DNA of 64,000 nt from a virus (taxonomy: Duplodnaviria > Caudoviricetes), in IMG/VR virus record IMGVR_UViG_3300045938_000114, positions 1-64,000 of that record; one strand, written 5' to 3'. The notes under the pieces are model-generated. The model searched no databases and was not told the DNA's origin. It saw only the letters and a program-made list of their open reading frames with translations. Position numbers and translations under genes: made by a program. Positions 18,016 to 62,481 of this stretch are shown piece by piece (the first letter of the stretch is position 1; every line of letters starts with the position of its first letter).

Positions 18016-19353
18016 TTAATGCGTCAACTTTATCACCTGCTGCTGACCTTCCTGCTTGATACGCAAGTAGTAAACGCCCGCTGGCAAGCGGCCCGCATCG
18101 GGCAGCACAACCAGCTGGCCGCTGGTGGCCGTGTGGCTGAGCACCTGCTTGCCCAGCGCATCGTAAAGTACCAGACCGACCGGCCCGGCCCCCAGCCCCG
18201 CTAGCTGCACGTGCAGCTGCTCGCGCCAGGGGTTGGGGTAGGCCTCAGCCCCCCAGGCCGCTGCGCCCGCCGCCAGCGCCACCGCCCGTACTGGCGAGTA
18301 GTGGGCGCTGCCGTCCAGGTCCACCTGCCGCAGGCGGTAGTAGAGCACGGCCGCGCCCGCAGGCAGGGCCATATCGCGGAAGCCGTAGGCGTGGGCCTGG
18401 CTGGTAGTGCCCTGGGCGGCCACCGCCCCCAGCTTGCTGAACGTCGTGCCATCGGTGCTGCGCTCGATGTCGAAGCGGTCGCTGTTCACCTCTGAGGCCG
18501 TGTACCAGGCTAGCGCCACCGCCGCGCCCTGCGCCTTCGCCGTAAACCCGACCAGCTGCACCGGCAGCGGGGCCACGCCGGTTGCTACTGGCGTCAGCAT
18601 GAGCCAGCCTGCCGTAGGGATGCTGGTCAGGCTGTAAGTGGGCGTGCCCACCAGCGCCGTCGGCGATACCCACGAGGAGCCGCCGCCGCCGCCGCCCGCG
18701 CTGCCGTTCAGGGCGGCGGCCCCACCGCCGTAGTAGCCGCCGCCTCCGCCGCCGTAGCCGCCGCTGCCGCCCTGGCCATTGACGCCGGGCGGGCCACCGG
18801 CCCCTACCGCGAACTGCGTAGCACCCTGGCCGGGCGTGGTGCCGTTGATGCCGACACCGTGGCCACCATCCGGCGTACCCCCGACCCCGCCCTGCGGCAT
18901 GGGCCAGGTCAGCCAGTCGTTGCCCCCGGCCCCGCCCGCCACCAGCAGCGCGTTGCGGGTAGTCAGGTAGTCGCCGGTGCTGGCGCCCACGCGGCGCAGG
19001 TCGGTGGCGCCGCCGCCGCCGCCCGCGCCCGCGTAGCCGGCCCCGCCGCCGTTGTAGCTGCTGCTGCCGCTTTGCTGGCCCTGCTCGCCAACTTCAATAA
19101 CAAGCGTTTCGCCCGGCACTACCGCGAGGATAGCTTGCACCTGGCCGCCCATCGAGCGGGCCTGGTCGGGGTTGCCGAGTCCGCCCGCCCCGCCCGCCGC
19201 CGCGACGTTGAGGCGCGTAACGCCGGCTGGCACCGTATAGAACTGCGGCGCACCGGTACAGCTATAGATGGTCTGGGCAGTGGCTACCAGCGGCCCCACC
19301 AGCAGGACGACGGCTACTAGCAGCCACCCTCTAAACGATATTGCGTGTTTCAT
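18016..19353 (-). CDS. T9SS type A sorting-domain protein with glycine-rich domain
   Basis: Signal peptide; GGGGG tracts; PLPVQL..F.A...W.TASE.NS..F.IERS.DG domain; CTD AYPNP...YDALGKQV...LPAGVYYLRI...KL. Confidence 0.9.
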   Translation of the reverse strand: MKHAISFRGWLLVAVVLLVGPLVATAQTIYSCTGAPQFYTVPAGVTRLNVAAAGGAGGLGNPDQARSMGGQVQAILAVVPGETLVIEVGEQGQQSGSSSYNGGGAGYAGAGGGGGATDLRRVGASTGDYLTTRNALLVAGGAGGNDWLTWPMPQGGVGGTPDGGHGVGINGTTPGQGATQFAVGAGGPPGVNGQGGSGGYGGGGGGYYGGGAAALNGSAGGGGGGSSWVSPTALVGTPTYSLTSIPTAGWLMLTPVATGVAPLPVQLVGFTAKAQGAAVALAWYTASEVNSDRFDIERSTDGTTFSKLGAVAAQGTTSQAHAYGFRDMALPAGAAVLYYRLRQVDLDGSAHYSPVRAVALAAGAAAWGAEAYPNPWREQLHVQLAGLGAGPVGLVLYDALGKQVLSHTATSGQLVVLPDAGRLPAGVYYLRIKQEGQQQVIKLTH

Positions 19354-19366
19354 AAAAACGTGTTTT

Positions 19367-20215
19367 TTACACCGCTACCGGCGCTTTAATGGCTGGCCAG
19401 GGGTCGTACCCGGTCAAGGTGAAATCCTCGTAGGTGAAGCTGAAAATGTCTTTTACCTCAGGATTGAGGTGCATCCGCGGCAGCGGGCGGGGCGCGCGGG
19501 TCAGCTGCTCGCGGGCCTGCTCGACGTGGTTGCTGTAGAGGTGCGTATCGCCGCCCGTCCAGATGAATTCGCCGGGCTGCAAGCCCGTCACCTGAGCTAC
19601 CATCATGGTGAGTAGCGCGTAGCTGGCCACGTTGAAGGGTACACCCAGGAACATGTCGGCCGAGCGCTGGTAGAGTTGGCAGCTGAGGCGGCCATCAGCC
19701 ACGTAGAATTGAAAGAGGCAGTGGCACGGGGGTAGCCGCATCAAGGGCAGGTCGGCCACGTTCCACGAGCATACAATCATGCGCCGCGAGTCAGGATTGT
19801 TTTTCAACTCCTCCACTACCTGGCTTATCTGGTCGATGTACTCGCGGGTAACAGTCGCGCCGGTGAGTTCTTCCCCCACCGAGTCGATAACTACCTCTTT
19901 AATTCCGGCCTTCCAGTTGCGCCACTGTGCGCCGTAGACCGGCCCAAGGTCGCTGTTGTCGTCGGCCCACTCGTCCCATATTTTCACCCCATGCTCGTGC
20001 AGGTAGGCCACGTTCGTGTCGCCGCGCAGAAACCACAGCAACTCGTGGATGATGCTTTTCAGGTGCACCTTTTTGGTGGTCACCAGCGGGAAGCCCTCGG
20101 CCAGGTTGAAGCGCATCTGCGGCCCAAAAATTGAGCGGGTGCCAGTGCCGGTACGGTCACCCTTCTCGTGGCCGTGCGTGAGTATTTGGTTCAATAGCGC
20201 GTGATACTGCTGCAT
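19367..20215 (-). CDS. thyA: Thymidylate synthase
   Basis: [43 protein letters not shown]. Confidence 0.97.
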
Positions 20216-35629: not shown

Positions 35630-35949
35630 TACAAGTTGCGGAGTTCCTTGGGAGTGGGCTTCAATGCTTCGGGAAACTTCAACAGGTACTCGCGCAGGGC
35701 ATTGTTTAAAATCTCCTGCTTACTGGGCTGCTCTGGCTCCCGTACCCAGTGCTTGACGCGCTCCAGCATCAGGTCGTTCTCGATGGAGATGCGCGACGAG
35801 AAAGCTGTAAATTCCTGGCGGGGCGGGGCCGGGGGTGTGGGCAATGCCTCGCGGGGTTCATCGAGCGGCCGGGCCTCTACGGCTGGCGCGGGCTTGCGTA
35901 GGTGATTAAGGAAATCTTTGCCCGCTTTAGGCTTGGTAGGTTCGTTCAT
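35629..35949 (-). CDS. Small ribbon-helix-helix centromere-binding protein (type Ib ParB/ParG-like)
   Basis: Flexible basic N-terminus then FSSRIS...L.RVK.W....SKQEILNNALREYL; coupled to parA. Confidence 0.75.
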   Translation of the reverse strand: MNEPTKPKAGKDFLNHLRKPAPAVEARPLDEPREALPTPPAPPRQEFTAFSSRISIENDLMLERVKHWVREPEQPSKQEILNNALREYLLKFPEALKPTPKELRNL

Positions 35950-36749
35950 ACGAGTTTGGCCAGGATGGCAGAAGTGAGTTTATGAAAGTCTTGTACGCCG
36001 TTCGAGTCGGGGTTGTCGCTCACCGGCAGCGTGCCGAAGGCCTGCGAATCTGACAGGGCTCCATCCTGCCGGATGTTGGGCAGCACCATATCGGGTCCGA
36101 AGTCCTCGCCGGTAATCTGCACTACCTGCTGGTGCAGGCGGCGGTTGGAGCGTGGGTTGTAGGGCAGGAAGAAAACGCCCAGCGCCTTGAGTTTGGGGTT
36201 CACGCCGCTTTCGCGCAGGCCCTGCGCGAGCTGCGCAATCAAGGCCTGCTTGTCGTAGGAAAACTTCTCCGGCTTGGACGGCACGACGTAGGCCGTGGCC
36301 GCCACGAACGCCATGTACGTCATGGTCGTTTGCGCGGGCGGGCAGTCGATGAGCACGTAGTCATACTGTTTGGCCACGGCCGCGAGCTTCTTCTTCAACA
36401 ACTCGTGGTAGTCGTCTACCTCACGAATTTGGTATTCCTGCACGGCCAGGTAGTTGCTGGCCGGTAATAGAAACAGGTTGGGGAAAGGCTCGCCCTGGGT
36501 ACGCAGGGGCTGGATAGCCTCTACGATGTCGGCCTGGCTCAGCAGCACCTCGCCCAGGCTGCGCCCGGCTGGGTCGCAGTTAAACCAGTTTGTGAGGTCG
36601 GATTGCCAGTCCGCATCAATGAGTAGTACGCGGTGGCCACGCTGGGCCAGGTCGGCGCCGATACAGGCCACGCTGGTCGTTTTGCCTACGCCGCCTTTGG
36701 CGTTGGTGACTGCGATAACAACGGGAGATTTGGGGGGAGTTTTTGCCAT
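35946..36749 (-). CDS. parA: ParA/Soj Walker-A partition ATPase
   Basis: KGGVGKTT, LIDAD.Q, YDYVLIDCPP; no N-terminal HTH; likely start 36749. Confidence 0.95.
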   Translation of the reverse strand: MAKTPPKSPVVIAVTNAKGGVGKTTSVACIGADLAQRGHRVLLIDADWQSDLTNWFNCDPAGRSLGEVLLSQADIVEAIQPLRTQGEPFPNLFLLPASNYLAVQEYQIREVDDYHELLKKKLAAVAKQYDYVLIDCPPAQTTMTYMAFVAATAYVVPSKPEKFSYDKQALIAQLAQGLRESGVNPKLKALGVFFLPYNPRSNRRLHQQVVQITGEDFGPDMVLPNIRQDGALSDSQAFGTLPVSDNPDSNGVQDFHKLTSAILAKLV

Positions 36750-36769
36750 ACTGGGTAGTTTATGGGGTG

Positions 36770-36912
36770 CAAGCGTTGTAAGCATCACTTACAACACTTG
36801 CAAAGCTGGCAAATAATATTCGTACTTGCAAGGCTTACATTTCTTACAACACTTACAAGACTTGCAAAAGCTGACCTGTCTGCAAGTCTTGTAAGTGTTG
36901 TAAGTCTTGCAA
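36770..36912. repeat. Cluster of 9-bp iterons (CTTRCAANA / TNTTGYAAG) with a perfect 24-bp inverted repeat (36843-36866 / 36881-36904); putative parS/operator
   Basis: CTTACAACACTTACAAGACTTGCA-N14-TGCAAGTCTTGTAAGTGTTGTAAG directly upstream of parA. Confidence 0.85.
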
Positions 36913-49114: not shown

Positions 49115-50287
49115 TTATTGGGTAATGCGGGCCGTGGGCCACTGGTCGTAAGTCTTGCCTTCCAGCAGCCGCCCGGCCGCCTCCTTGCCCACGTTGCGCA
49201 TGCGGGCTACGGTAGCCTCGCAGCCATCCCCAAACTCGAAATACACACGGTCGTCGGGCACCTGTCCATAGCTTACTATTTTGCCATCCGGCCCCAGGAA
49301 AATATCGCCTTTGCGGGGAGAGCCACCGGTGCCGGCTTCCGAGAATTGTTCCGTCCAGTTGCCCCACTGTTTGAACAGGAAGGGTACGCCCGCCTCCTCG
49401 CACTGTAGTTGAATATCGCGCGCCCAGTCGGGGTGCATGGGCCGGGCGTGGTGGCCAGACTCGCCGCCGACGATAACCCAATCAATGCCAACCTGGCTAT
49501 CCTCGTAGCCCTCACCTGGGCCACTGGAAGTATTGGGGGTAGTACCATCCCGCTTTACTACGCCGGGGCCGGTCAGCGTCCGCTCATCGTGGTCGACGCG
49601 CCACAGGTTCACTGGCCCTAGCAACGGCTCACAACTGAGGAAACGAACGGCGGCTGGCGCGGCCAGCAACTGAGGGACGCGAATGTCCGCCTGTTCCTGA
49701 TTCTCGACGGAGGTGCCTAGCCAGACGTTGGTAGGCGGGGTGCCTGCTATCCACTTTTCCAGCCAGTGAGCAAACAAGCCCCTCCGCTCAATCATGGAAT
49801 AGGCCGCCATAAGCGCTGGCAGAATGTTCTCCGGCCGCTTGGTAAGCAAAAGCCAGTCAAGGTTTGGCGTTTCGTAGATGAGTTTTAGCAGGCGGTAGCG
49901 CTCGGCCGCGATGGCGACGAAACGCACCGTGCGCGTTTTGCCCTCGCCTACTGGTACCGTGCCGGTGGTACCGGCGTAGCTGAGGCTCTTGGCGCTCTGC
50001 ACCTCAAACACGTCGGCCATGCTGCTGCAGAACACGCGACGGCGTTCCCCCTGGGCAGCGGCGGCGGCGTTCCACTTCCGCGGCTTCGCCCAGTTGGCCT
50101 CGCTCCGGGCCAAGCGGGGGGCGTTGATGCCCCAGCAGGTGCCGGGGTTGTCGCCCTCATTAAGCGCCGAGTGCCATAGCCGGTGCTGCGCCTCAGCGTA
50201 GCAGTTTTTGCAGCCAGGCGATATTTTGGCACAACCTTCCCACGAATTGAAGGTGTGGTCGCACCATTCGATTTTGCTATTTTCCAT
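49115..50287 (-). CDS. DUF5131 / phage Gp37-Gp68 radical-SAM-like protein
   Basis: IEW.D.TFN.W.GC.KISPGCKNCYAE, SMAD.F, LLTKRP, NVWLG.SVE, SCEPLL, WVIVGGESG, FKQWG. Confidence 0.93.
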   Translation of the reverse strand: MENSKIEWCDHTFNSWEGCAKISPGCKNCYAEAQHRLWHSALNEGDNPGTCWGINAPRLARSEANWAKPRKWNAAAAAQGERRRVFCSSMADVFEVQSAKSLSYAGTTGTVPVGEGKTRTVRFVAIAAERYRLLKLIYETPNLDWLLLTKRPENILPALMAAYSMIERRGLFAHWLEKWIAGTPPTNVWLGTSVENQEQADIRVPQLLAAPAAVRFLSCEPLLGPVNLWRVDHDERTLTGPGVVKRDGTTPNTSSGPGEGYEDSQVGIDWVIVGGESGHHARPMHPDWARDIQLQCEEAGVPFLFKQWGNWTEQFSEAGTGGSPRKGDIFLGPDGKIVSYGQVPDDRVYFEFGDGCEATVARMRNVGKEAAGRLLEGKTYDQWPTARITQ

Positions 50288-53738: not shown

Positions 53739-54545
53739 TTAGTTAAGTACTTTGAGCTGATAGGCCGCCTCTATTGTCAGGCCCGTAATCTCCGGCAGCG
53801 TCTTGCGGCTCATGTGCAGGGTGTAGCCCGTTTCCTGTTCCAGCGCGACATACTCGGCGTACAATTCCGGATTGTGCAGCGCCCCGTTGCGCAGGTCGTT
53901 GGCGCTGGCCATGATGCAGAAGACGCAACTGAGGCGGTCGTTACCCAGGGCGTAGGCGTAGTGGGGCTTCTCGCCGGCCGCCGCGATGATGCCGAACACC
54001 TCGGCGGTGCTGAGGTGGTGAATCGGCAGCCACTCGTACCAGGTACGGCCGGCCACCGAGCCTTTCTCATTTTTCCGCCATACCTGCATCTTAGCGCGGT
54101 TAGGACTCTCCTGGGCGCGCAGGCCCATGCAGGTTACTATCGTAGTGAAGCCGTGGGCTCGGGCGTACCGGCGCACCTCGCGCTCGATGGGGCCGCGCTT
54201 CAAGTCCGAGGTACACTGGCGGTTGCCGGCCTGCGGGAAGCTGGGGGCCGTGGGGTAGTTGGCGTGCCGGTGGCGCACGAGTTGCAGAAACGTCTTGGTA
54301 GCCGGGGCCAGTACGAACTTCACGCCGTAGCTAGCCGCTTGGTCGCGGGCCAACTCCAACGCGCCCGGCCACTCGGCCTCACCCAGCGGCGCGTGAATAC
54401 ACACGAGCTGCCGGGCGGGTACTAAGGCACGCAACCGGATAAGCATAGCCTGGCTGTCTTTACCGCCGCTGTGGTTCACCACGAACAACGCGCCGGCTGC
54501 TACCAGCGCCGCCGTATCAGGCGTATTTACAATTAGGTCGCTCAT
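53739..54545 (-). CDS. PAPS-reductase/PP-loop family protein, paralogue 1
   Basis: SGGKDS, R.CTSDLKRGP, G.RA.ES..RA, LPI, RLSC.FC. Confidence 0.92.
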   Translation of the reverse strand: MSDLIVNTPDTAALVAAGALFVVNHSGGKDSQAMLIRLRALVPARQLVCIHAPLGEAEWPGALELARDQAASYGVKFVLAPATKTFLQLVRHRHANYPTAPSFPQAGNRQCTSDLKRGPIEREVRRYARAHGFTTIVTCMGLRAQESPNRAKMQVWRKNEKGSVAGRTWYEWLPIHHLSTAEVFGIIAAAGEKPHYAYALGNDRLSCVFCIMASANDLRNGALHNPELYAEYVALEQETGYTLHMSRKTLPEITGLTIEAAYQLKVLN

Positions 54546-55642
54546 AGCAATTTAAATTGGGTGCCTGCTTTCGGCGCGGGCGCGGCGGCCAGTATCTGCT
54601 CTTTCAGCTCAGCCGCCCGGCCCACCACCGGCAACTCGGCCAGACTCCACCCATGCTTGAAGGTGGCCCCGCCGATAATTTCCAGTTCCAGGTAGTGGCC
54701 GTAGAGGTCGGGGTTATGGTTGGCCCCGTTGAGCAGGTCGCTCTTGGAGCCGAGGACGCACAGCGCGCAGCTGAGGCGCTCGTTGCCGTACACGTAGGCC
54801 GGGTGGAACTGCCAGCCCTCCAAGGCTTGGTCAACCAGCCCCGCTTTGTAGAGGCGGCGGCGGTATTCCAACTCGGCGCGGGTATGGCCCAGCGCCTGCC
54901 ATATATCATCCTCCGTAAAACGCAGCAGGGGCCGCCAGTTGAAGGCCAGCCGCGTACCCATCCCCCCGTTAAAGTTGCTGTAAGCGCCCTCCGGGGTAAG
55001 TGACTCCCGCAGTAGCGCGGCCGAAGTAATAGCGGTGCGCAGTTCAAGCGCGGGCTTGCCGGCCCTGGCGGCGCTCTCCCCGGCCCGCACGCCCTCGGCG
55101 CTAATCACTACGCCGGTGTACTCGCGCAGGGCCGTGTCGAGCGGCCCACGCTTTAGGTCGCTGGTGCAGTAGCGCGTGCTGGCCGAGGGCCAGTACTGCT
55201 CCGGGTTGCGCAGCGCGGTATCAATCGGCCCGCTTTTCAGGTGCGAAGTGCAGTAGCGGCTGCTGGCGCTGGGCCAGAATGGGGCGGGCGCTTCGTCCTC
55301 GGTAGCGTCAGGCTTGGGCCGGGTGGCCAGCAGCCGCTCCTCGATGCGCTGCACGAGGTCGCCTTTCGGGCGCTGCACCGTGACCAAAGGCACGTCGTAC
55401 AACTCGGCTTGGCGCCGCACCTCAAACGGCGTCTCGCCCCACTCGGCCCGGCCCAGGTCGGCGTGCAGGGCGAACAGCGGGCCGGGGTAGCCGTTGAGCC
55501 GGTGGTGCTCCACCAGCCGTTTCAACAGCACCTGACTATCCTTGCCGCCGCTGATGCTGATGGCCAGCGCCGCGCCGTTCTCCAGCGCGTCGGTTAGCGG
55601 CTCCGGGATGGCCAGCGGGGTATAGCTAATCTTCTGGTGCAT
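54542..55642 (-). CDS. PAPS-reductase/PP-loop family protein, paralogue 2, with internal 28-aa duplication
   Basis: SGGKDS, two copies of WPSAS.RYCTS.LK.GP.DTALR, G.RA.ES..RA, RLSC.LC. Confidence 0.92.
   Translation of the reverse strand: MHQKISYTPLAIPEPLTDALENGAALAISISGGKDSQVLLKRLVEHHRLNGYPGPLFALHADLGRAEWGETPFEVRRQAELYDVPLVTVQRPKGDLVQRIEERLLATRPKPDATEDEAPAPFWPSASSRYCTSHLKSGPIDTALRNPEQYWPSASTRYCTSDLKRGPLDTALREYTGVVISAEGVRAGESAARAGKPALELRTAITSAALLRESLTPEGAYSNFNGGMGTRLAFNWRPLLRFTEDDIWQALGHTRAELEYRRRLYKAGLVDQALEGWQFHPAYVYGNERLSCALCVLGSKSDLLNGANHNPDLYGHYLELEIIGGATFKHGWSLAELPVVGRAAELKEQILAAAPAPKAGTQFKLL
55124..55279. repeat. Diverged 84-bp-period tandem duplication
   Basis: Copies begin at 55124 and 55208. 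Confidence 0.85.
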
Positions 55643-55830: not shown

Positions 55831-56787
55831 TCAGAAAAGCGTTAGTTGTAGGTTGGTGGCCACCGCAGGGGTGGGCATCAGCACCAGCTCAGGGGCGCGG
55901 GCCGGGCGGGGCGCGGCTACGGGCACCATTTTGGCCGTAACCTCAGGCCGGTACAGGCGGGGCGAGAAGAACATCACTTCATCGCCCGCCTGGCGGGTCT
56001 GTGCGCTGTAGTGCAGGTTGAATTCCAGCGACTCGTACTGCTGGTAGAGCGCCCGGATAGCCGGCACGTTATCGTAGGAAACTATCCAATGCCCGCGCAG
56101 GGTGCTACGCAGCTTGCCCACCATGTCGGCCACGGCCGCGTGCTCAGCGTGCCCGTAGGCGTTGGCGTAAAGCCCCTGGCCTTTTTCATAATAGGGCGGG
56201 TCCAGGTAAATCAGGTTGCAGATGTCTACCTCAGGCTCTATTGCCTCCAAAAACTTCGGCGCATCAAGGTTATACAGCCGTATTTGAAACTCCCGGTAGG
56301 CTATTTTTTGAATCCGGCGTGAAAGGTCTTCGCGGTTGAAACGGTCGTCTACCTGGCAGCTACCGTCCTGCTGCTGCCCACCGATAACGCCCCCGGTCAA
56401 GATGCCGGAGCGGTTGGTGCGGTTCAAAAAGAAACAGGCTTGGCCTAGCTCCAGCCGCGAGGCGCTGGGGTCGGCCAGTATCTGGCGCTGGCGGTGCCAC
56501 TGCTTCATCGTGACCGGCGTATCCCGCACGAAGCGCAGCAGCTCATCCGTTTGATAGAGCACGCAGTACCAGAAGGCGTACACGGCGGGGTCAGCGTCAT
56601 TGAGGTAAACCCGGCCGGCATATTGCCCGGCCAGCAGGGCCCACGCGACGCTGGCGCCCCCACAGTAGGGTTCGATGTAGTGCCCGTCGCACAGCCCGTT
56701 CATCTCAAAAACGCGGCAGATGTACTGCGCTAGCTTGCGCTTGCCACCGGGGTAGCGCAGGGGCGAGCGGTAGGGGTGTAAAGCCAT
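55831..56787 (-). CDS. D12-class N6-adenine DNA methyltransferase (Dam-like)
   Basis: SPLRYPGGK, EPYCGG, LND, NRSG, YLDPPY; ends QLTLF. Confidence 0.95.
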   Translation of the reverse strand: MALHPYRSPLRYPGGKRKLAQYICRVFEMNGLCDGHYIEPYCGGASVAWALLAGQYAGRVYLNDADPAVYAFWYCVLYQTDELLRFVRDTPVTMKQWHRQRQILADPSASRLELGQACFFLNRTNRSGILTGGVIGGQQQDGSCQVDDRFNREDLSRRIQKIAYREFQIRLYNLDAPKFLEAIEPEVDICNLIYLDPPYYEKGQGLYANAYGHAEHAAVADMVGKLRSTLRGHWIVSYDNVPAIRALYQQYESLEFNLHYSAQTRQAGDEVMFFSPRLYRPEVTAKMVPVAAPRPARAPELVLMPTPAVATNLQLTLF

Positions 56788-56788
56788 T

Positions 56789-57094
56789 TTAGAAAAGCGT
56801 TAGCTGTTTGCGGGTAAGCGTCTTCGGGCTACGGCCTAGCGCCGTGGGGCCCTTTGGGCACATTTTCACTAAGCCACTGTCGACGGCGGCCTGCTCACGC
56901 TCGACGTGCACGTAGCCGCCCACGTTGATGTGCTCGCTGGGACGCACGCAGGGCGAGCCGGCCGGGGCGAAGCACTTGGAGCAGGGCACCACCCAAAACG
57001 GGTGCGTTTCCCAGTGCTCCCCGCAGGTGTTACAGGTGAAGCCCTGCCCGTTGCGGCCCCGGCCCTTGCGGCTTTTAGATGCGGGCTTATTCAT
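56789..57094 (-). CDS. Zn-finger protein ending QLTLF
   Basis: C..C, C..C.A..G.PC.RPS.H...H.ER. Confidence 0.75.
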   Translation of the reverse strand: MNKPASKSRKGRGRNGQGFTCNTCGEHWETHPFWVVPCSKCFAPAGSPCVRPSEHINVGGYVHVEREQAAVDSGLVKMCPKGPTALGRSPKTLTRKQLTLF

Positions 57095-58413
57095 AGCCGA
57101 GTAGCTAAGTAGTTATCCAGCACCCGTTCAATGCCCCCGTACAGCCCCCGCCGATTTTTATTGAAGCGGTTCGTTTCCAGCACCTTCATTGACTGTTGAA
57201 TCAAGTCGTAGTGGTCCGGCTCGTCGGCGCACACCTCGCGCAGCAGCGCATCGGCCTCCGCCCGGTTGGCCTGTATCCGCGGCAGGGCTACCGCCGTGGG
57301 GTACACCTCAGCGTGCACGGCCGTAACCGAGTAGTCGTAGATGCCGTCCTGGTGCCACTGCCCCTGGATGGCCACCAGCTCGCGGGCCGAGATGAAGCTG
57401 AGCGTCGGGTCGTAGCCCTGCTGTATCTCGCGCTGCGCCAGCAGCAGCCGGCGCAGCACCTCCGCCCGAACCTCGGGCAGGTATGGCCCCCAGCGGCCTT
57501 CCAACTGGTAGCCCCGGCGCAGGGTCTTGCTGCGGTAGCGCTCGGGGTTGTCGCGGGTTTCCACGAGGTAGTCGCGCAGGTCGGCCAGCGGCTCCATCCA
57601 CTCCTCGCCGTGTTGCAGGAGGCCTTTCATTGACTTGTCCTCTTTCACCACCGTGCACACGTAGCAGCCGAAGCGGCTCTTGCCGCACGAGGGCGTTTCG
57701 GTATCGACCACTAGCGGGCAATCCTCGTCGGTGCTGGCGTTGCGGTAGAGCGTAATCAGCTCCTTGTGGGTGCCGCCCCAGGGCGGGGGCACCTGGCTGA
57801 GGTACTGCCACACCCCGGCCGTTTCTACGTCGCGGATGGGGGCGTACACGTAGGCGTTGGGCAGCAGGTGCTTACGCAGCCGGTGGCCGTGTACGGCGTG
57901 CTTGGCCATTGAGCGGGCACGGCGGGCGCTCTCCGCCGAGCGCGTGCCTAGCAGGATAATTACCTCGCCGGCCTGGCTCACCTTCGCCTTGATGAAGGCC
58001 GTGGTCGGGTTGATTTTCAGCCGGTCGGTACACCAGCGGAAAGTACTGCTGGGGGCTGGGTAGCCCTTGCCGATAAGCGAAAACCAAAACGCCTGTTCAA
58101 CGACGGGCGTAGTGCGCACCACGACGAAGGGCATTTGATGGGCGGGCGCGGCGGCCTCGATGCGTTGCAGCGTTGCCTCGATAAAGCCCACGATGCGCGG
58201 GTTCTCCACCAGCGTATCGTTGCACACGACGTACACCGGCCGGTGGCGCTGGGCGGCCGGCAGCTTGGCCACGGCCAGCCACACGAGTTGCAGCAGCATC
58301 GTGGAGTCCTTACCGCCGCTGAACCCGACTATCCAGGGCCGGTTGTTGTCGTCGGCCGTGTACTGGTCCTGAATCTCGGCCAGCATGAACGGGAGCATGA
58401 TGGAGCTACTCAT
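57091..58413 (-). CDS. dndC: DNA phosphorothioation sulfurtransferase DndC homologue (orphan)
   Basis: RPWIVGFSGGKDST, DTLVENP, LIGKGYPAP...FRWCTDRLKI.P, GTR.AES, CPLV.D..TPSCG.SRFGC..CTVV..DKSM, GPY; likely start 58413. Confidence 0.92.
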   Translation of the reverse strand: MSSSIMLPFMLAEIQDQYTADDNNRPWIVGFSGGKDSTMLLQLVWLAVAKLPAAQRHRPVYVVCNDTLVENPRIVGFIEATLQRIEAAAPAHQMPFVVVRTTPVVEQAFWFSLIGKGYPAPSSTFRWCTDRLKINPTTAFIKAKVSQAGEVIILLGTRSAESARRARSMAKHAVHGHRLRKHLLPNAYVYAPIRDVETAGVWQYLSQVPPPWGGTHKELITLYRNASTDEDCPLVVDTETPSCGKSRFGCYVCTVVKEDKSMKGLLQHGEEWMEPLADLRDYLVETRDNPERYRSKTLRRGYQLEGRWGPYLPEVRAEVLRRLLLAQREIQQGYDPTLSFISARELVAIQGQWHQDGIYDYSVTAVHAEVYPTAVALPRIQANRAEADALLREVCADEPDHYDLIQQSMKVLETNRFNKNRRGLYGGIERVLDNYLATRL

Positions 58414-58594
58414 GGTCGCGCCCCTCCTGCCAAATGTCCCACAGGGCAAACACCCCGAATAAGCCCCACCCGAATAATACCAGGACGGCCCGCACAGCCC
58501 TGCGCCGTGGGCTGATGCCCGCCATTGGGGTAGAGGGCAGGATGAAGATGCCCACGCACAGGTAAGCGGTTATGAGGTAGTGCCACCACATCAT
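58406..58594 (-). CDS. Small two-TM membrane protein
   Basis: Hydrophobic; coupled overlaps. Confidence 0.55.
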   Translation of the reverse strand: MMWWHYLITAYLCVGIFILPSTPMAGISPRRRAVRAVLVLFGWGLFGVFALWDIWQEGRDHE

Positions 58595-58941
58595 GCTGCT
58601 ACCCCTCCTTCAATTTGAAAAAGCGTGAGTGGCTGTTTAAGCAGCTTTGCCTGCCCCAGCCTAGTTTCTAATTCTGACTTTGCAAGCCGCAGGCGCAACT
58701 GCTGCACGTCCTTTTCAGAATAATCCGGTAGGGAAAGCAGGCGCTCGCACAGGCTGATGTCGCTGCGTAGTTGCTCGGTTGTTCGGCCTACGTAGTACCT
58801 GCTCAGGGATTGCTCCAGGCTTAATCCGGTGCGCATATCGGCTATCACCTTATCCGCACAATTGGGGTCGAAACGGGAGATAAAGCCCGCGCCCACGGCC
58901 GTTTGCGGCAGCAGGAATGAAGTTTGAGGGCGTTTGCTCAT
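58591..58941 (-). CDS. Hypothetical protein
   Basis: Real start likely 58941 (MSKRPQTSF), ATGA overlap with the Dcm stop. Confidence 0.6.
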   Translation of the reverse strand: MSKRPQTSFLLPQTAVGAGFISRFDPNCADKVIADMRTGLSLEQSLSRYYVGRTTEQLRSDISLCERLLSLPDYSEKDVQQLRLRLAKSELETRLGQAKLLKQPLTLFQIEGGVAA

Positions 58942-61301
58942 GCGGCGGCCCTCCCTCCAAATAAGTCCAGCTGCTCCCAGGCGTGCACCGTAGCCTCGCA
59001 CAGCGGGCGCAGCTTGCGCTTGCGGGCGGCGCGCAGGCTGGGCGTCATGGCGCGGGCCAGGGCCTCGGCTATCTGCGGCACTACGGCGTTGCCTAGCATC
59101 TCCTTTTTCTTGGTATCGCTGCCAGCTAGATAGTAGTCGGCGGGAAAGCCCATTATCAACTTCAGCTCCTCCACCTTCAGCATTCGCATGTAGATGTCGG
59201 CGATGCCGTGGCGGCGGCAGTAGGCTTTGAGCAACCGCATAGCTTCCGAGTCGCCCGGCTCGTGGGCGACGGGCGAGCCGGGCGCGGCGAGCACCAGGTA
59301 CTGGTGGCGGCGGCTGGCCACGATGGTCTTCGCCGGCCCACGTAGCGAGTAGGGAGCGCTGGCCCCATGGCTGGGCGTGAGGAACCCCAGCAGTCCCACC
59401 CGGTCGTGGGTAGTCAGCGTGGGGCACGGCCGGCATAGTGACTGCACGGTGCCGTTGCCGTAGTAGGTCATCAGGTACAGGTTGCCGCCGTTGGTCGTGA
59501 CGGTGGGCGCCTGGCCATCAAGGGACATGGTGAGCCGGGCCGCGTCATCGTCGGCGCGGGTGCCGTTGCTTTGCAGCAGGGCAGCCGTGAGCAGCGACTG
59601 GTTGGGCTGCGCGGTGATGGTGCGGCTGGCGGTGGTGCTGGGCCACGTCTTGGCGGCCGGGCTGGTGCCCTCGCTTACCCCGTTGCTTTGGGCCAGGAAC
59701 TCCACCTGCACCGTGCTGAAACGGTTCTCAGTGGTCACGGTATTCACCGGGCCTTCCAGGCTCAGCACCCGGCAGTTATCGGAGCCGCCGTTATGCTGCT
59801 GCACGAATACTGGCGTAAGTAGGCGGCTCTTAGGTTGGGTAGTCAGGCAAGGGTGCGGGGCGCACATAGCTGAGGTCTGGCCCCGGCCGCTGTAGAAGTG
59901 CGTGAGGTATTGCTGCCCACCGCTGCCGGTGATGGTAGCCGAAGGCTCGTCGAGCGAGCGCCCCCGGTTCTCGCCCCCGTAGTTGTGCATCAGGTAGGCC
60001 GTAGCCAGATTATGATGGTCGGCGGTGGTGATAGTGCTCGCGGGCTTGCTCAGCGGGTAGCTCTGGTGGGTAGGGTCGCCGCCGTAGGACTTTACCATTA
60101 TCTCGGCGCTCACCAACCCGAGCGGCCCCTTATCCTGGCGGGCTACTATTGTGGGTGAGGGGGCCGTACTGCTAGCCGAAGCGCCGCCCCAGGCGGGGTT
60201 AGCCACGAACTCAGCCGTCACGAGGTCAGGATGCCACGAGGCCGCTATCACGTCGCTGGGCCGGTTGATGCTGGCGCCTACGCCAGGCTTACCGCTGGGC
60301 GGGTTGCTCTGGTTTTTGTGGATGAAGGCCGGCGTGAGCAGGTCGGGCAGGTAGCAGGTAGCGATAGTGCTCGACGGGTTAGTGCCGGGCACGCTGCCCT
60401 CAGGGCGCTGCGTGCCCGTGCGCTTCACCAGTACCTCGCTCTCACCCGCCCCTATAACGTGCTTTTTCAGGCCAGCCAGAATGCGGCGCAGGGTTTTGTC
60501 AGCCGGTTTATCGCCGGGCTTGCGGTTCTTGCCCTGGTCCCATTGCGTGAAGATGCTGCGGCCCCGGTCGCCCAGGTCGAGCACGTCACGCACCGGCAGC
60601 CAGGTAGGCAGCTTACCCTTACCGTCGCGGTCGTGGGTAGGCTTGGGCCATTTGATTTTGATGCCGGCCCGCGTGAAGATGCCGAAGTAACGCTTGCGGC
60701 TTTGGGGTGCGCCGAAGTCGGCCGCGTTCAAAATCCGGTATTCGTAGTTGACGAAGCCCATCTTCTTCATTACCTCCAACCAGTGGTTGTAGTACTCGGA
60801 CTTACGCTCCTTAATCGGGTCGTAGATGGGCTCGCCCTTCTTATCGAAGACCAGCTCCCCGCGCTTGTTGCGCCGCTGCTGCACCGGCCCCCAGGTTAGG
60901 AACTGCGACACGTTCTCAATCATGATGCAGTTCACGTTGAGGGCGAGCGCGAAGCGGGGCAGTTCCTCGGCCAAGGCGCGCTCCTTGGCGTCGCGGCTCT
61001 GGCCACCTTTCGCAATAGAATGGTGCGTGCAATCCGGGCTGGCCCACATCACGTCGGCCATCACGCCCACCTTCCACTCACTTTGTTTGCGGATGTCGCA
61101 CAGCAGGTGCTTGGCGTAGGGGAAGTTGTGTTTGTGGGTAGCGATAGCTACCGGCGAGTGGTTGAGGGCCAGCATCGCCAGCCAGCCGGCCCAGCTCAGG
61201 CCCTTGCTGGCCCCACCGCCGCCCGCGAAGAAGTCAGCGTAGCGGATAGGCGCGTCAGGCTCTACCTCGGCTGTGGCGATTTTACGGATGGTCTTAACCA
61301 T
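58938..61301 (-). CDS. C5-cytosine DNA methyltransferase with expanded repetitive variable region
   Basis: FFAGGGG (I), SPDC (IV), ENV (VI), PQSRKR (VIII), RML...EL...MGFP..Y (IX), GNAV (X). Confidence 0.95.
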   Translation of the reverse strand: MVKTIRKIATAEVEPDAPIRYADFFAGGGGASKGLSWAGWLAMLALNHSPVAIATHKHNFPYAKHLLCDIRKQSEWKVGVMADVMWASPDCTHHSIAKGGQSRDAKERALAEELPRFALALNVNCIMIENVSQFLTWGPVQQRRNKRGELVFDKKGEPIYDPIKERKSEYYNHWLEVMKKMGFVNYEYRILNAADFGAPQSRKRYFGIFTRAGIKIKWPKPTHDRDGKGKLPTWLPVRDVLDLGDRGRSIFTQWDQGKNRKPGDKPADKTLRRILAGLKKHVIGAGESEVLVKRTGTQRPEGSVPGTNPSSTIATCYLPDLLTPAFIHKNQSNPPSGKPGVGASINRPSDVIAASWHPDLVTAEFVANPAWGGASASSTAPSPTIVARQDKGPLGLVSAEIMVKSYGGDPTHQSYPLSKPASTITTADHHNLATAYLMHNYGGENRGRSLDEPSATITGSGGQQYLTHFYSGRGQTSAMCAPHPCLTTQPKSRLLTPVFVQQHNGGSDNCRVLSLEGPVNTVTTENRFSTVQVEFLAQSNGVSEGTSPAAKTWPSTTASRTITAQPNQSLLTAALLQSNGTRADDDAARLTMSLDGQAPTVTTNGGNLYLMTYYGNGTVQSLCRPCPTLTTHDRVGLLGFLTPSHGASAPYSLRGPAKTIVASRRHQYLVLAAPGSPVAHEPGDSEAMRLLKAYCRRHGIADIYMRMLKVEELKLIMGFPADYYLAGSDTKKKEMLGNAVVPQIAEALARAMTPSLRAARKRKLRPLCEATVHAWEQLDLFGGRAAA

Positions 61302-62481
61302 GAATCGCTACCTCCTCACTTTGGGCTAGTGCCAGGCCACCGGCCCCACGCTCGCGGCGGCCTTGCTTAGCGGTGCCGCAGAACGGCGACGTCATGTATA
61401 AAATGGACGGCGTAGTCATGGCCGGCAGTTCGCCTACCGTCAACATGCGGTCGGTGGGCACGGCCTGCATGTGGGGTTGCAGGCCGTGGTTGATGCTGAC
61501 AACCGGCTTTTCGGCAAGCTGCTGCTGTTCCTGCTTGGCCTTCATGAACTCCTCCCAGCTACGCCGACCGCCGCGCATGTATGCGAAGCGCTCCTCGTGA
61601 TTAGCTGGCAGGTTGCGGATGTAGAAGGCTGAGCCGGGGCTGGTGTCCTCCTTCGGCGTGCCGCGCTTTTTAGGCGCGACCGTGGCTTGAACAGGAGCCG
61701 GCGCGGGCGGGGTAGGCTTAGCAACGGCCACTACCTTTTTAGGAGTCGGCTCCTTCACAACCTTCGGGGCTGGGGCCGGGCGGGCAGCCTTCGCCGCTTT
61801 CTGCACCGGCTCTTTCTTCGGGCGCACGGTTGACGTAGCTGCATCCGAGCGCCGGGCGCGGCGGCGCAACTTTAGCTTGTTGGCGTAAGCTACTACACGT
61901 TTCACTGACTTGCCTATCAGCGCAGCCAGCTCAGACATCGGCATTGACGTTTCGTAGTGGGCCCGCACCAATGCATCCTTCTCACCTGACCAACTCGTCT
62001 TGCGCGGCCCCTTTTTAGGGCGCTTGATAACCAGACGTTTTATTTTCAACTTCCTGGCGCGCTTCACGAGGTCGCTCACCTTCGTGCGGCCGAGCAGCGC
62101 GGCGAGTTCACGCAACGGCATTGCGGTCGGGTAGTGCGCAAGCATCAACTCATCTGCTTCCGCTGTCCAACGTTTGTAGCCCGAGTTACGGCGCAGCTTC
62201 AAATCCTCCGCCTTGTTTCTGACCGAGGCTAGCGAGCGGCCTAGCAAGTCGGATACCCCTTTGTAACCCAGGGCCTCGTAGTTCTCGCGCAACGTAGCCG
62301 TCTCCGACTCCGTCCAATCCTGGTCGCTTATGCGCTTAATACTCAGCTCTCTGGCCTTAACGGCAATAGCGCTCCAGGTATGGGCTGGGATTTCAGCCAG
62401 CAGTGCTGCCCGTTTTGCCTTCGGGTATAAATCGCTCAATAACACTACTTCGGCGGGTGTCCAACGATTGTAATTTCTCAT
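61294..62481 (-). CDS. DNA-binding protein with four tandem Myb/SANT-like HTH repeats
   Basis: 4x W[TS]..E...L...Y......LA..LGR....V...A..L.L.R. Confidence 0.8.
   Translation of the reverse strand: MRNYNRWTPAEVVLLSDLYPKAKRAALLAEIPAHTWSAIAVKARELSIKRISDQDWTESETATLRENYEALGYKGVSDLLGRSLASVRNKAEDLKLRRNSGYKRWTAEADELMLAHYPTAMPLRELAALLGRTKVSDLVKRARKLKIKRLVIKRPKKGPRKTSWSGEKDALVRAHYETSMPMSELAALIGKSVKRVVAYANKLKLRRRARRSDAATSTVRPKKEPVQKAAKAARPAPAPKVVKEPTPKKVVAVAKPTPPAPAPVQATVAPKKRGTPKEDTSPGSAFYIRNLPANHEERFAYMRGGRRSWEEFMKAKQEQQQLAEKPVVSINHGLQPHMQAVPTDRMLTVGELPAMTTPSILYMTSPFCGTAKQGRRERGAGGLALAQSEEVAIHG

Follow-up and report, generated by a model that had tools for sequence, protein, structure and literature searches.

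A lone, full-length DndC of a putative Bacteroidota myovirus belongs to a phage-borne clade under purifying selection and may write phosphorothioate marks

Phosphorothioation is, to our knowledge, the sole natural modification of the DNA backbone. Work on it has treated it as a mark of cellular defence that multi-protein machines write, and DndC is the enzyme that places sulfur into the backbone. What, then, does a DndC do on a phage that carries none of its usual partners? This question is raised by a gene at 57091..58413 (minus strand) of a 64,000-base window (the whole stretch of DNA analyzed), which covers bases 1-64000 of the 94,888-base IMG/VR virus record IMGVR_UViG_3300045938_000114. 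An earlier note, made from the letters of the window, had described the gene as an orphan, full-length dndC on a phage and had proposed that it plugs into host DndD/E and IscS, acts as a dominant decoy or works with phage partners. Here we describe the gene, its relatives and its surroundings, and weigh these roles against each other.

The open reading frame (ORF) at the locus, 57091-58449 (minus strand), opens with TTG. The real start is likely the ATG at 58413, giving a product of 440 amino acids (aa). This ATG shares 8 nt with the stop of a preceding 62-aa ORF, an overlap which suggests translational coupling. The 440-aa product, a homologue of the PP-loop/[4Fe-4S]-type sulfurtransferases of DNA phosphorothioation, matched the NCBIfam model TIGR03183 (DndC) with 434.3 bits (cut-off 290.4) over profile positions 3-446 of 447. 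The PADLOC DndC model gave 478 bits, and Pfam recognized the generic PAPS_reduct domain only. The protein contains the motifs GFSGGKDS (residues 30-37), GKGYPAPSSTFRWCTDRLKI, CPLVVD...TPSCGKSRFGCYVC and WGPY. In an alignment of 33 DndCs, the PP-loop SGGKDS, RWCT.RLKI, CPLV.D and SCG.SRFGC..C form invariant columns. Five cysteines (C128, C232, C243, C250 and C253) are invariant across this protein, its lone relatives and operon-type DndCs; they fit a [4Fe-4S] cluster and a sulfur relay, which is their predicted role. The specificity loop reads GYPAPSSTFRW, with the triad SST. By profile and motif the gene is thus confirmed as a real, full-length DndC with intact motifs, as the earlier note had read it.

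Partners of DndC were sought by six-frame searches of the whole 94.9-kb contig, whose completeness CheckV puts at about 68%. Neither DndD (TIGR03185) nor DndB (TIGR03233) was found, and a class-V aminotransferase/desulfurase (Aminotran_5) was likewise absent. The search for DndE (TIGR03184) was also negative, a result that is weak alone because the control for this model gave no match. Bacteroidota DndD, DndE, DndB and DndA gave no match to the contig in tblastn. The contig therefore lacks what makes up a Dnd modification system, namely dndD and dndE with dndC and a desulfurase in the cluster. The description of the gene as an orphan, which dndD or dndE elsewhere on the element would have overturned, holds over these 94.9 kb.

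The best database matches of the protein showed 55-70% identity; the named ones are DndCs, all of Cytophagales or other Bacteroidota. The 80 best matches among species-representative genomes also fall almost entirely into Bacteroidota, and in about 65 of these 80 loci dndC is directly followed by dndD and dndE. The closest matches are of two kinds: either they stand in canonical dndC-dndD-dndE clusters, or they stand alone amid small phage-like genes. The canonical clusters carry dndA, and one of them also dndB and DndH (DndH 594 bits). To the DndCs of canonical Hymenobacteraceae dndCDE operons the phage protein is 64-70% identical. Among the lone copies, one (L008) adjoins DnaB, VRR-NUC and Dam, one (L133) has TerS, TerL and portal genes 6 kb away, and one (L006) was found in Hymenobacter sp. 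J193.

A maximum-likelihood tree (IQ-TREE, LG+G4, 42 rows) placed the phage protein within a clade of 16 DndCs (ultrafast bootstrap 100, Shimodaira-Hasegawa-like approximate likelihood-ratio test 99). All 12 members of known context are without DndD/E and are located in the DNA of phages, prophages or mobile elements from Hymenobacteraceae-like Bacteroidota; the context of the remaining four is not known. The sister clade (16 members, support 97/92) holds six DndCs of intact Hymenobacteraceae dndCDE operons, two from decaying operons with a truncated dndD and one whose gene is followed by an HNH gene. Quick trees made earlier gave the same picture. The lone copies are about 63-70% identical in pairs, and the operon clade has shorter terminal branches than they do. 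The lone clade is monophyletic and sister to operon DndCs, which indicates a single capture of a host-type dndC followed by diversification. Phylogeny against cellular DndC, suggested in the earlier note as a check, therefore yields a cellular sister group, the Hymenobacteraceae operon dndC. In an all-against-all BLASTP of the ORFs around lone DndCs, no gene was common to this phage and the others; the only matches were shadow ORFs inside dndC itself. The idea of dedicated phage partners thus found no support.

The lone clade is under purifying selection. Pairwise ratios of non-synonymous to synonymous substitution (dN/dS, Nei-Gojobori) within the clade ranged from 0.08 to 0.37 (0.08-0.12 for the closest lone pairs), values which are upper-bound style estimates only, since dS was saturated in every pair. 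Of 81 columns without variation among 25 operon-type DndCs, 70 are likewise invariant across the 12 aligned lone DndCs, and the 11 others show mostly conservative variation. The low ratios together with the kept columns reject relaxed selection, which the earlier note had named as a ground for dropping its proposal, and argue against a catalytically dead decoy.

Two parts of DndC are of particular relevance to its partners and its target. In Escherichia coli B7A, residues 433-482 and the terminal helix of DndC bind DndD according to predicted structures, pull-downs and liquid chromatography-mass spectrometry, and the substitutions L458D/E462A/R471A abolish this binding (PMC12193691). DndC is also predicted to make the main contact with DNA; its loop G135-YPAPxxxFRW-145 enters the major groove, and residues 140-142 track the phosphorothioate (PT) motif (PMC12193691). 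Positions were mapped to B7A numbering via a Salmonella DndC, which has the same loop numbering. The segment equivalent to B7A 433-482 corresponds to residues 383-432 of the phage protein and is present in all 12 aligned lone-clade members as a predicted docking site for DndD. In the phage protein the C-terminal docking segment is placed at about residues 383-436, and B7A L458, E462 and R471 align to residues 408, 412 and 421. The conservation of the segment relative to the whole protein is 0.47/0.67 in the lone clade, similar to the 0.41/0.56 of operon types that are equally diverged. This phage, four further basal lone members and every one of the 16 sister-clade DndCs share the triad SST in the loop. 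Four lone members carry DRR and seven carry DTR, triads that were not seen among the operon-type DndCs compared here.

Docking was also approached by complex prediction, in which residues 296-440 of the phage DndC were co-folded with a host-type DndD (L148, with an alignment of 23 DndDs). This pair scored 0.51, against 0.00 for the best of three controls. The runs agreed in at least 84% of contacts, with a partner pLDDT (predicted local distance difference test) of at least 70. Of 80 solved complexes, 58 reach the mark for this score, as do 2 of 110 mismatched pairs; a passing score of 0.60 or less was given by only seven of the 80 solved complexes and by both passing mismatches. The structure prediction with host DndD that the earlier note had suggested thus lends weak support only. 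Sequence searches of the PDB, with the single sequence and with a profile, returned no structure of DndC or DndCDE.

A full DndC was present in 14 of 274 Hymenobacteraceae genomes, and three genomes carry broken dnd operons. In the decaying operons (L145 in G129, L146 in G046, and G161:C170:13757-16975), dndC is intact or broken, dndD is cut to its C-terminal half and dndE is split. Several further observations concern dnd loci of these bacteria. The DndE of Hymenobacteraceae-type operons (L004:13549-15114, L010:13488-15074 and relatives) has about 520 aa, compared to 110 aa in E. coli; it consists of an N-terminal DndE domain fused to a HerA/FtsK-like ATPase region (PADLOC matches to DndE and to DndH/mad8). 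A second layout without DndD/E occurs in Cytophagales and Saprospiraceae, where the gene directly after dndC encodes a conserved HNH_2 nuclease of about 330 aa (L009:10001-12340, L053:3603-5925, L054:9998-12325, L086:1827-4152 and L094:3603-5983; HNH_2 40-57% identical between loci). Near three of these loci lies a dndA-like desulfurase, which is sometimes broken, so that the arrangement looks like a compact DndC-HNH(-DndA) module. One lysogen of the lone clade, G093, has on its contig 21 an island without DndC (L154:1920-16344) that encodes a DndD-like ABC ATPase, a HerA/FtsK-type ATPase, an AAA_21 ATPase, a ResIII helicase, an N6/N4 methylase and a SIR2-like protein. Its make-up recalls the methylase-based DndD/CxC systems described in PMC10853773 (Rakesh, Aravind and Krishnan). 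Its DndD-like gene was considered as a natural partner of the lone DndC and rejected, because it belongs to a methylase/helicase/HerA-type system and not to a phosphorothioation system.

Viral relatives were recovered from IMG/VR with an alignment as query; a single-protein query found none. DndC relatives were present in 29 records, 18 of them above the DndC cut-off. DndD accompanies DndC in three of these 18 records and is missing from 15. Among the records without DndD are genomes of 41.9 kb and 75.3 kb that are rated complete and have direct terminal repeats, as well as large proviruses. The label "lone" changes at least 12 times on the tree, indicating that lone DndCs arose many times. 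The neighbours of these viral DndCs are genes of replication and DNA modification, namely PolA and primase, DpdA, DUF5131 and a helicase, an N6/N4 methylase, and ThyX. Many viral DndC-like proteins are short, reaching profile positions up to about 365 of 447, and have no docking tail, which is not the case for the clade of this phage. In a collection of cultured phages, comparable DndCs were found only on three uncultured gut contigs named "Bacteriophage sp." (36-42% identity), two of which match over 88-96% of the query.

The phage gene sits in a tightly packed, co-oriented run on the minus strand, in which genes overlap by 4-8 nt. At the head of the run lies a Myb/GcrA-like helix-turn-helix protein of 395 aa (61294..62481; PF07750 GcrA 30.2 bits, phrog_323 transcriptional regulator). 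It is followed by a Dcm-type C5-cytosine DNA methyltransferase of 787 aa with a long insert (58938..61301; PF00145 101.6 bits, phrog_116 250 bits), a 116-aa ORF with an ATGA overlap at each end (58591..58941; no Pfam or PADLOC match) and the 62-aa ORF, which is hydrophobic, membrane-like and without a family match (58406..58594). Downstream of dndC, the start of a 101-aa phage zinc-finger-like protein (56789..57094; PF24623 23.7 bits, slightly below the cut-off of 24) overlaps the dndC stop by 4 nt. Then come a D12-class N6-adenine DNA methyltransferase of the Dam family with 318 aa (55831..56787; PF02086 67.3 bits, phrog_56 172.6 bits), a 67-aa ORF and two PAPS-reductase-like PP-loop paralogues, both minus strand. 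The first has 366 aa (54542..55642; PF01507 37.7 bits, phrog_424 117.6 bits) and reaches only 15 bits against the DndC model, hence it is not a DndC. The second has 268 aa (53739..54545; PF01507 41.7 bits, phrog_424 141.5 bits); it is not a DndC either and gave weak PADLOC matches to BrxP and SspD. Three PP-loop enzymes, DndC and the two phrog_424 genes (53739-55642), thus lie within 5 kb of one operon. Neither the 116-aa ORF, the 62-aa ORF nor the zinc-finger protein gave a Pfam or PADLOC match to DndE or a defence protein, and neither of the two genes that overlap dndC, one at each end, is related to dnd genes. The flanks given in the earlier note, zinc finger and Dam on one side and a small membrane gene and Dcm on the other, are as described, with the 116-aa ORF in addition. 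Beyond the paralogues lie an RNase T-like exonuclease and DUF5131. The DUF5131 gene (263.8 bits; window 49115-50287, minus strand) lies 7 kb downstream of dndC. In a 189-kb IMG/VR provirus, another DUF5131 gene (L014:8015-9142) has an unrelated lone DndC at a distance of 1 kb, and the association may be a recurrent one.

The contig itself encodes a tail sheath, baseplate wedge, tape measure, portal, major head protein and head protease. These structural genes identify it as a myovirus, so that the placement of the gene on a phage is confirmed, as is also clear from the IMG/VR record. The record has no terminal repeats, and its GC content is about 62%. Its DNA was present in several leaf metagenome runs. 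A ParA-type ATPase (AAA_31, 125 bits; window 35946-36788, minus strand) lies by the portal region, and a serine recombinase (Resolvase, 93 bits; contig 78676-79422, L002:14676-15422, plus strand) past the end of the window, where a small-terminase-like protein and a glucosaminidase are also encoded. The phage is possibly temperate or plasmid-like, that is, a phage-plasmid. Within the tail and structural region, a host-style secreted surface protein is encoded at 18016-19353 (minus strand); it combines a glycine-rich domain (ALK_LTK_GRD, 61.8 bits) with a C-terminal sorting domain of the type IX secretion system (Por_Secre_tail, 31.9 bits, cut-off 27), and the sorting domain points to a Bacteroidota host. 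An alphaproteobacterial host, which the GcrA match could suggest, was rejected, because this match is weak (30 bits) and both the sorting domain and the DndC phylogeny favour Bacteroidota. A complete ThyA thymidylate synthase (416 bits; window 19367-20215, minus strand) lies amid the structural genes, and no tRNA genes were found in the window. The major head protein had no relative in the 274 Hymenobacteraceae genomes, a search in which the positive control likewise gave no match.

What is the DndC of this phage likely to do? We tentatively favour, at somewhat less than an even chance, a counter-defence phosphorothioate writer that uses the sulfur supply and the DndD/E of the host. An ancestor of the phage lineage would have captured dndC from the dndCDE operon of a Hymenobacteraceae-type host, and the lineage would have retained it as a single gene. 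In this phage it is part of an early operon with translational coupling, which encodes orphan enzymes of DNA modification (Dcm, DndC and Dam). On infection of a host with dndCDE and DndFGH-type restriction, persulfide sulfur for the phage DndC would come from the cysteine desulfurase of the host, and the enzyme would dock on host DndD-DndE via its conserved C-terminal segment. It would then write the PT motif of the host, using the same SST loop, on replicating phage DNA, which would be read as self and escape PT-sensing restriction. The position of the gene between orphan Dcm and Dam, a triad identical to that of the host proteins and a DndH gene beside a host operon of the same type argue for such protective marking of phage DNA. 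The option of the earlier note that DndC plugs into the host machinery is supported as far as the 64-70% identity to host DndCs, the docking segment and the shared triad are concerned. It fails to account for four lysogens in which there is no DndD to plug into.

These lysogens (G030, G132, G079 and G146) carry a lone-clade DndC in prophage-like DNA and have no DndD anywhere in their genomes, and they head the points that weigh against our tentative reading. A fifth genome, G093, combines its lone-clade DndC with only the DndD-like ATPase of the methylase/helicase/HerA-type system described above. In DndD-free cells host DndD/E cannot be the partner, which is the main argument against a host-dependent model. 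Moreover, canonical dndC with an adjacent full dndD occurs in only about 7-8 of the 274 Hymenobacteraceae genomes, a narrow niche for a strongly constrained gene; it could be kept for the minority of Dnd-positive hosts that the phage meets. The gain from a phage copy is also not obvious in a host that already makes DndC. At the docking segment itself, position 415 of the phage protein never varies among Bacteroidota operon DndCs but is free to do so in the lone clade, and the DRR subclade has no basic residue aligned to B7A R471. The common SST triad may simply be the ancestral state, and the weak complex prediction could reflect mere likeness to a cognate DndC. For every member of the lone clade the function is a prediction from sequence.

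The same DndD-free genomes, in which clade members are under purifying selection, speak for an autonomous single-protein writer, which would need only a host desulfurase and Fe-S assembly and would provide a general anti-restriction mark in any host, beside Dcm and Dam. We consider this doubtful, though it is the main rival reading. It fits the operon of orphan methyltransferases and the 15 of 18 IMG/VR DndC records without DndD, complete genomes with terminal repeats included. A diversified triad (SST, DRR, DTR) would be expected if the protein itself reads DNA. In the tdpABC system tdpC alone reportedly suffices for PT synthesis (An et al. 2025, Nat Chem Biol, in the account given by PMC12914056). 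However, experiments on Dnd-type DndC have all found DndD and DndE to be required (PMC12707154, PMC12193691), and the lone clade retains the DndD-docking tail that many other viral DndC-like proteins have lost. Reviews and a survey by the Aravind group describe DndD-DndE as the obligatory core of Dnd-type systems. Still more doubtful is the further proposal that a lineage of Bacteroidota phages made DndC a self-sufficient one-protein backbone writer and that its loop, evolving from SST to DRR or DTR, retargets the mark. Our preference for borrowing of host DndD/E over solo action in the manner of TdpC, to which we give less credence, is a tentative one.

Other chemistry or another substrate, such as thiolation or adenylation of DNA or RNA, possibly with the PAPS-reductase paralogues, or a prophage function that benefits the host, appears unlikely. 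Three PP-loop enzymes in one operon, the persistence of the gene in DndD-free lysogens and the wide occurrence of uncharacterized phage PAPS-reductase homologues (PMC11437467) could be explained in this way, but the DNA-reading and sulfur-transfer motifs specific to DndC are intact. The paralogues and all other neighbours are absent from the other lone-DndC loci, so that a conserved function cannot depend on them. A decoy that binds host DndD/E or the desulfurase unproductively, and so sabotages host Dnd, is very unlikely in our view. Such a protein would profit from the kept docking segment and from the binding to host-type DndD, which is weakly predicted (0.51 against a control of 0.00), and overexpression of DndC/DndD is reported to be toxic (PMC12707154). 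Yet it would need neither PP-loop, five cysteines nor specificity loop, all of which are kept clade-wide (dN/dS 0.08-0.37), and blocking host modification would leave unmodified phage DNA exposed to DndFGH. The dominant decoy of the earlier note is disfavoured on these grounds. Finally, dndD, dndE and a desulfurase could be encoded in the part of the phage genome that the contig does not cover (roughly 30%), as a split operon or behind an assembly gap. The CheckV completeness of 68% leaves room for them, and an identical protein is recorded in the protein database on a 113.7-kb contig. We nevertheless hold this to be the least probable explanation, because in about 65 of 80 genome loci dndD comes directly after canonical dndC, whereas none of the 12 clade members of known context has DndD/E adjacent, DndD is missing altogether from four whole genomes that carry a clade member, and both ends of dndC are overlapped here by genes unrelated to dnd.

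If host DndD/E are indeed used for marking phage DNA, the lone phage DndC clade would represent counter-defence by mimicry of a backbone mark, for which the only experimental hint so far is a fusion of a PAPS-reductase domain with Dam in a Vibrio phage. The clade makes it testable whether a Dnd-type DndC acts without DndD/E or serves foreign DndDE in trans, and its natural loop variants SST, DRR and DTR offer a ready test of the proposed DndC specificity code. Should the protein be a self-sufficient writer, it would provide phages with a portable anti-restriction backbone modification that works without DndD/E, and experimenters with a minimal, programmable phosphorothioation enzyme. The DndC family is known. 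Our searches for lone or orphan full-length phage DndC found no description of the clade, and the searchable literature contains no account of such a form, lone and phage-borne, monophyletic and under selection.

Several known systems invite comparison. BrxP (BREX type 4) and SspD (Ssp systems) are PP-loop enzymes that insert sulfur and work with the ATPases BrxC and SspC instead of DndD, and BrxP together with BrxC makes PT in BREX type 4 (PMC12914056). The phage protein is only weakly similar to them (PADLOC 56.6 bits for BrxP and 40.6 bits for SspD, against 478 bits for DndC), and no BrxC-, SspC- or SspB-like gene was noted in the general annotation of the contig genes, which included no search aimed at them. 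TdpC, compared by its description in the account cited above, is a precedent for one gene sufficing without partners of the DndD/E type; it differs in belonging to a cellular defence system of thermophiles, in which it is paired with TdpAB. In the Vibrio crassostreae podophages of Piel et al., a phage PP-loop module is likewise associated with Dam, and the fusion of a PAPS-reductase domain to Dam conferred resistance to host Dnd (bioRxiv 10.1101/2021.05.05.442762). That protein, again compared by description, joins Dam to a PAPS domain of generic type with about 170 aa, whereas the phage described here has a complete DndC, encoded separately from Dam with the zinc-finger ORF between them. The nearest known relatives are the DndCs of canonical dndBCDE(A) systems, as studied in E. 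coli B7A, Salmonella Cerro 87 and Streptomyces lividans, and among them those of Hymenobacteraceae operons. With canonical DndC the phage protein shares the PP-loop, the cysteines, the GYPAPxxxFRW loop and the docking segment. Unlike canonical dnd genes, it is encoded between orphan methyltransferases in an early operon and belongs to a separate, faster-evolving clade made up of lone genes only.

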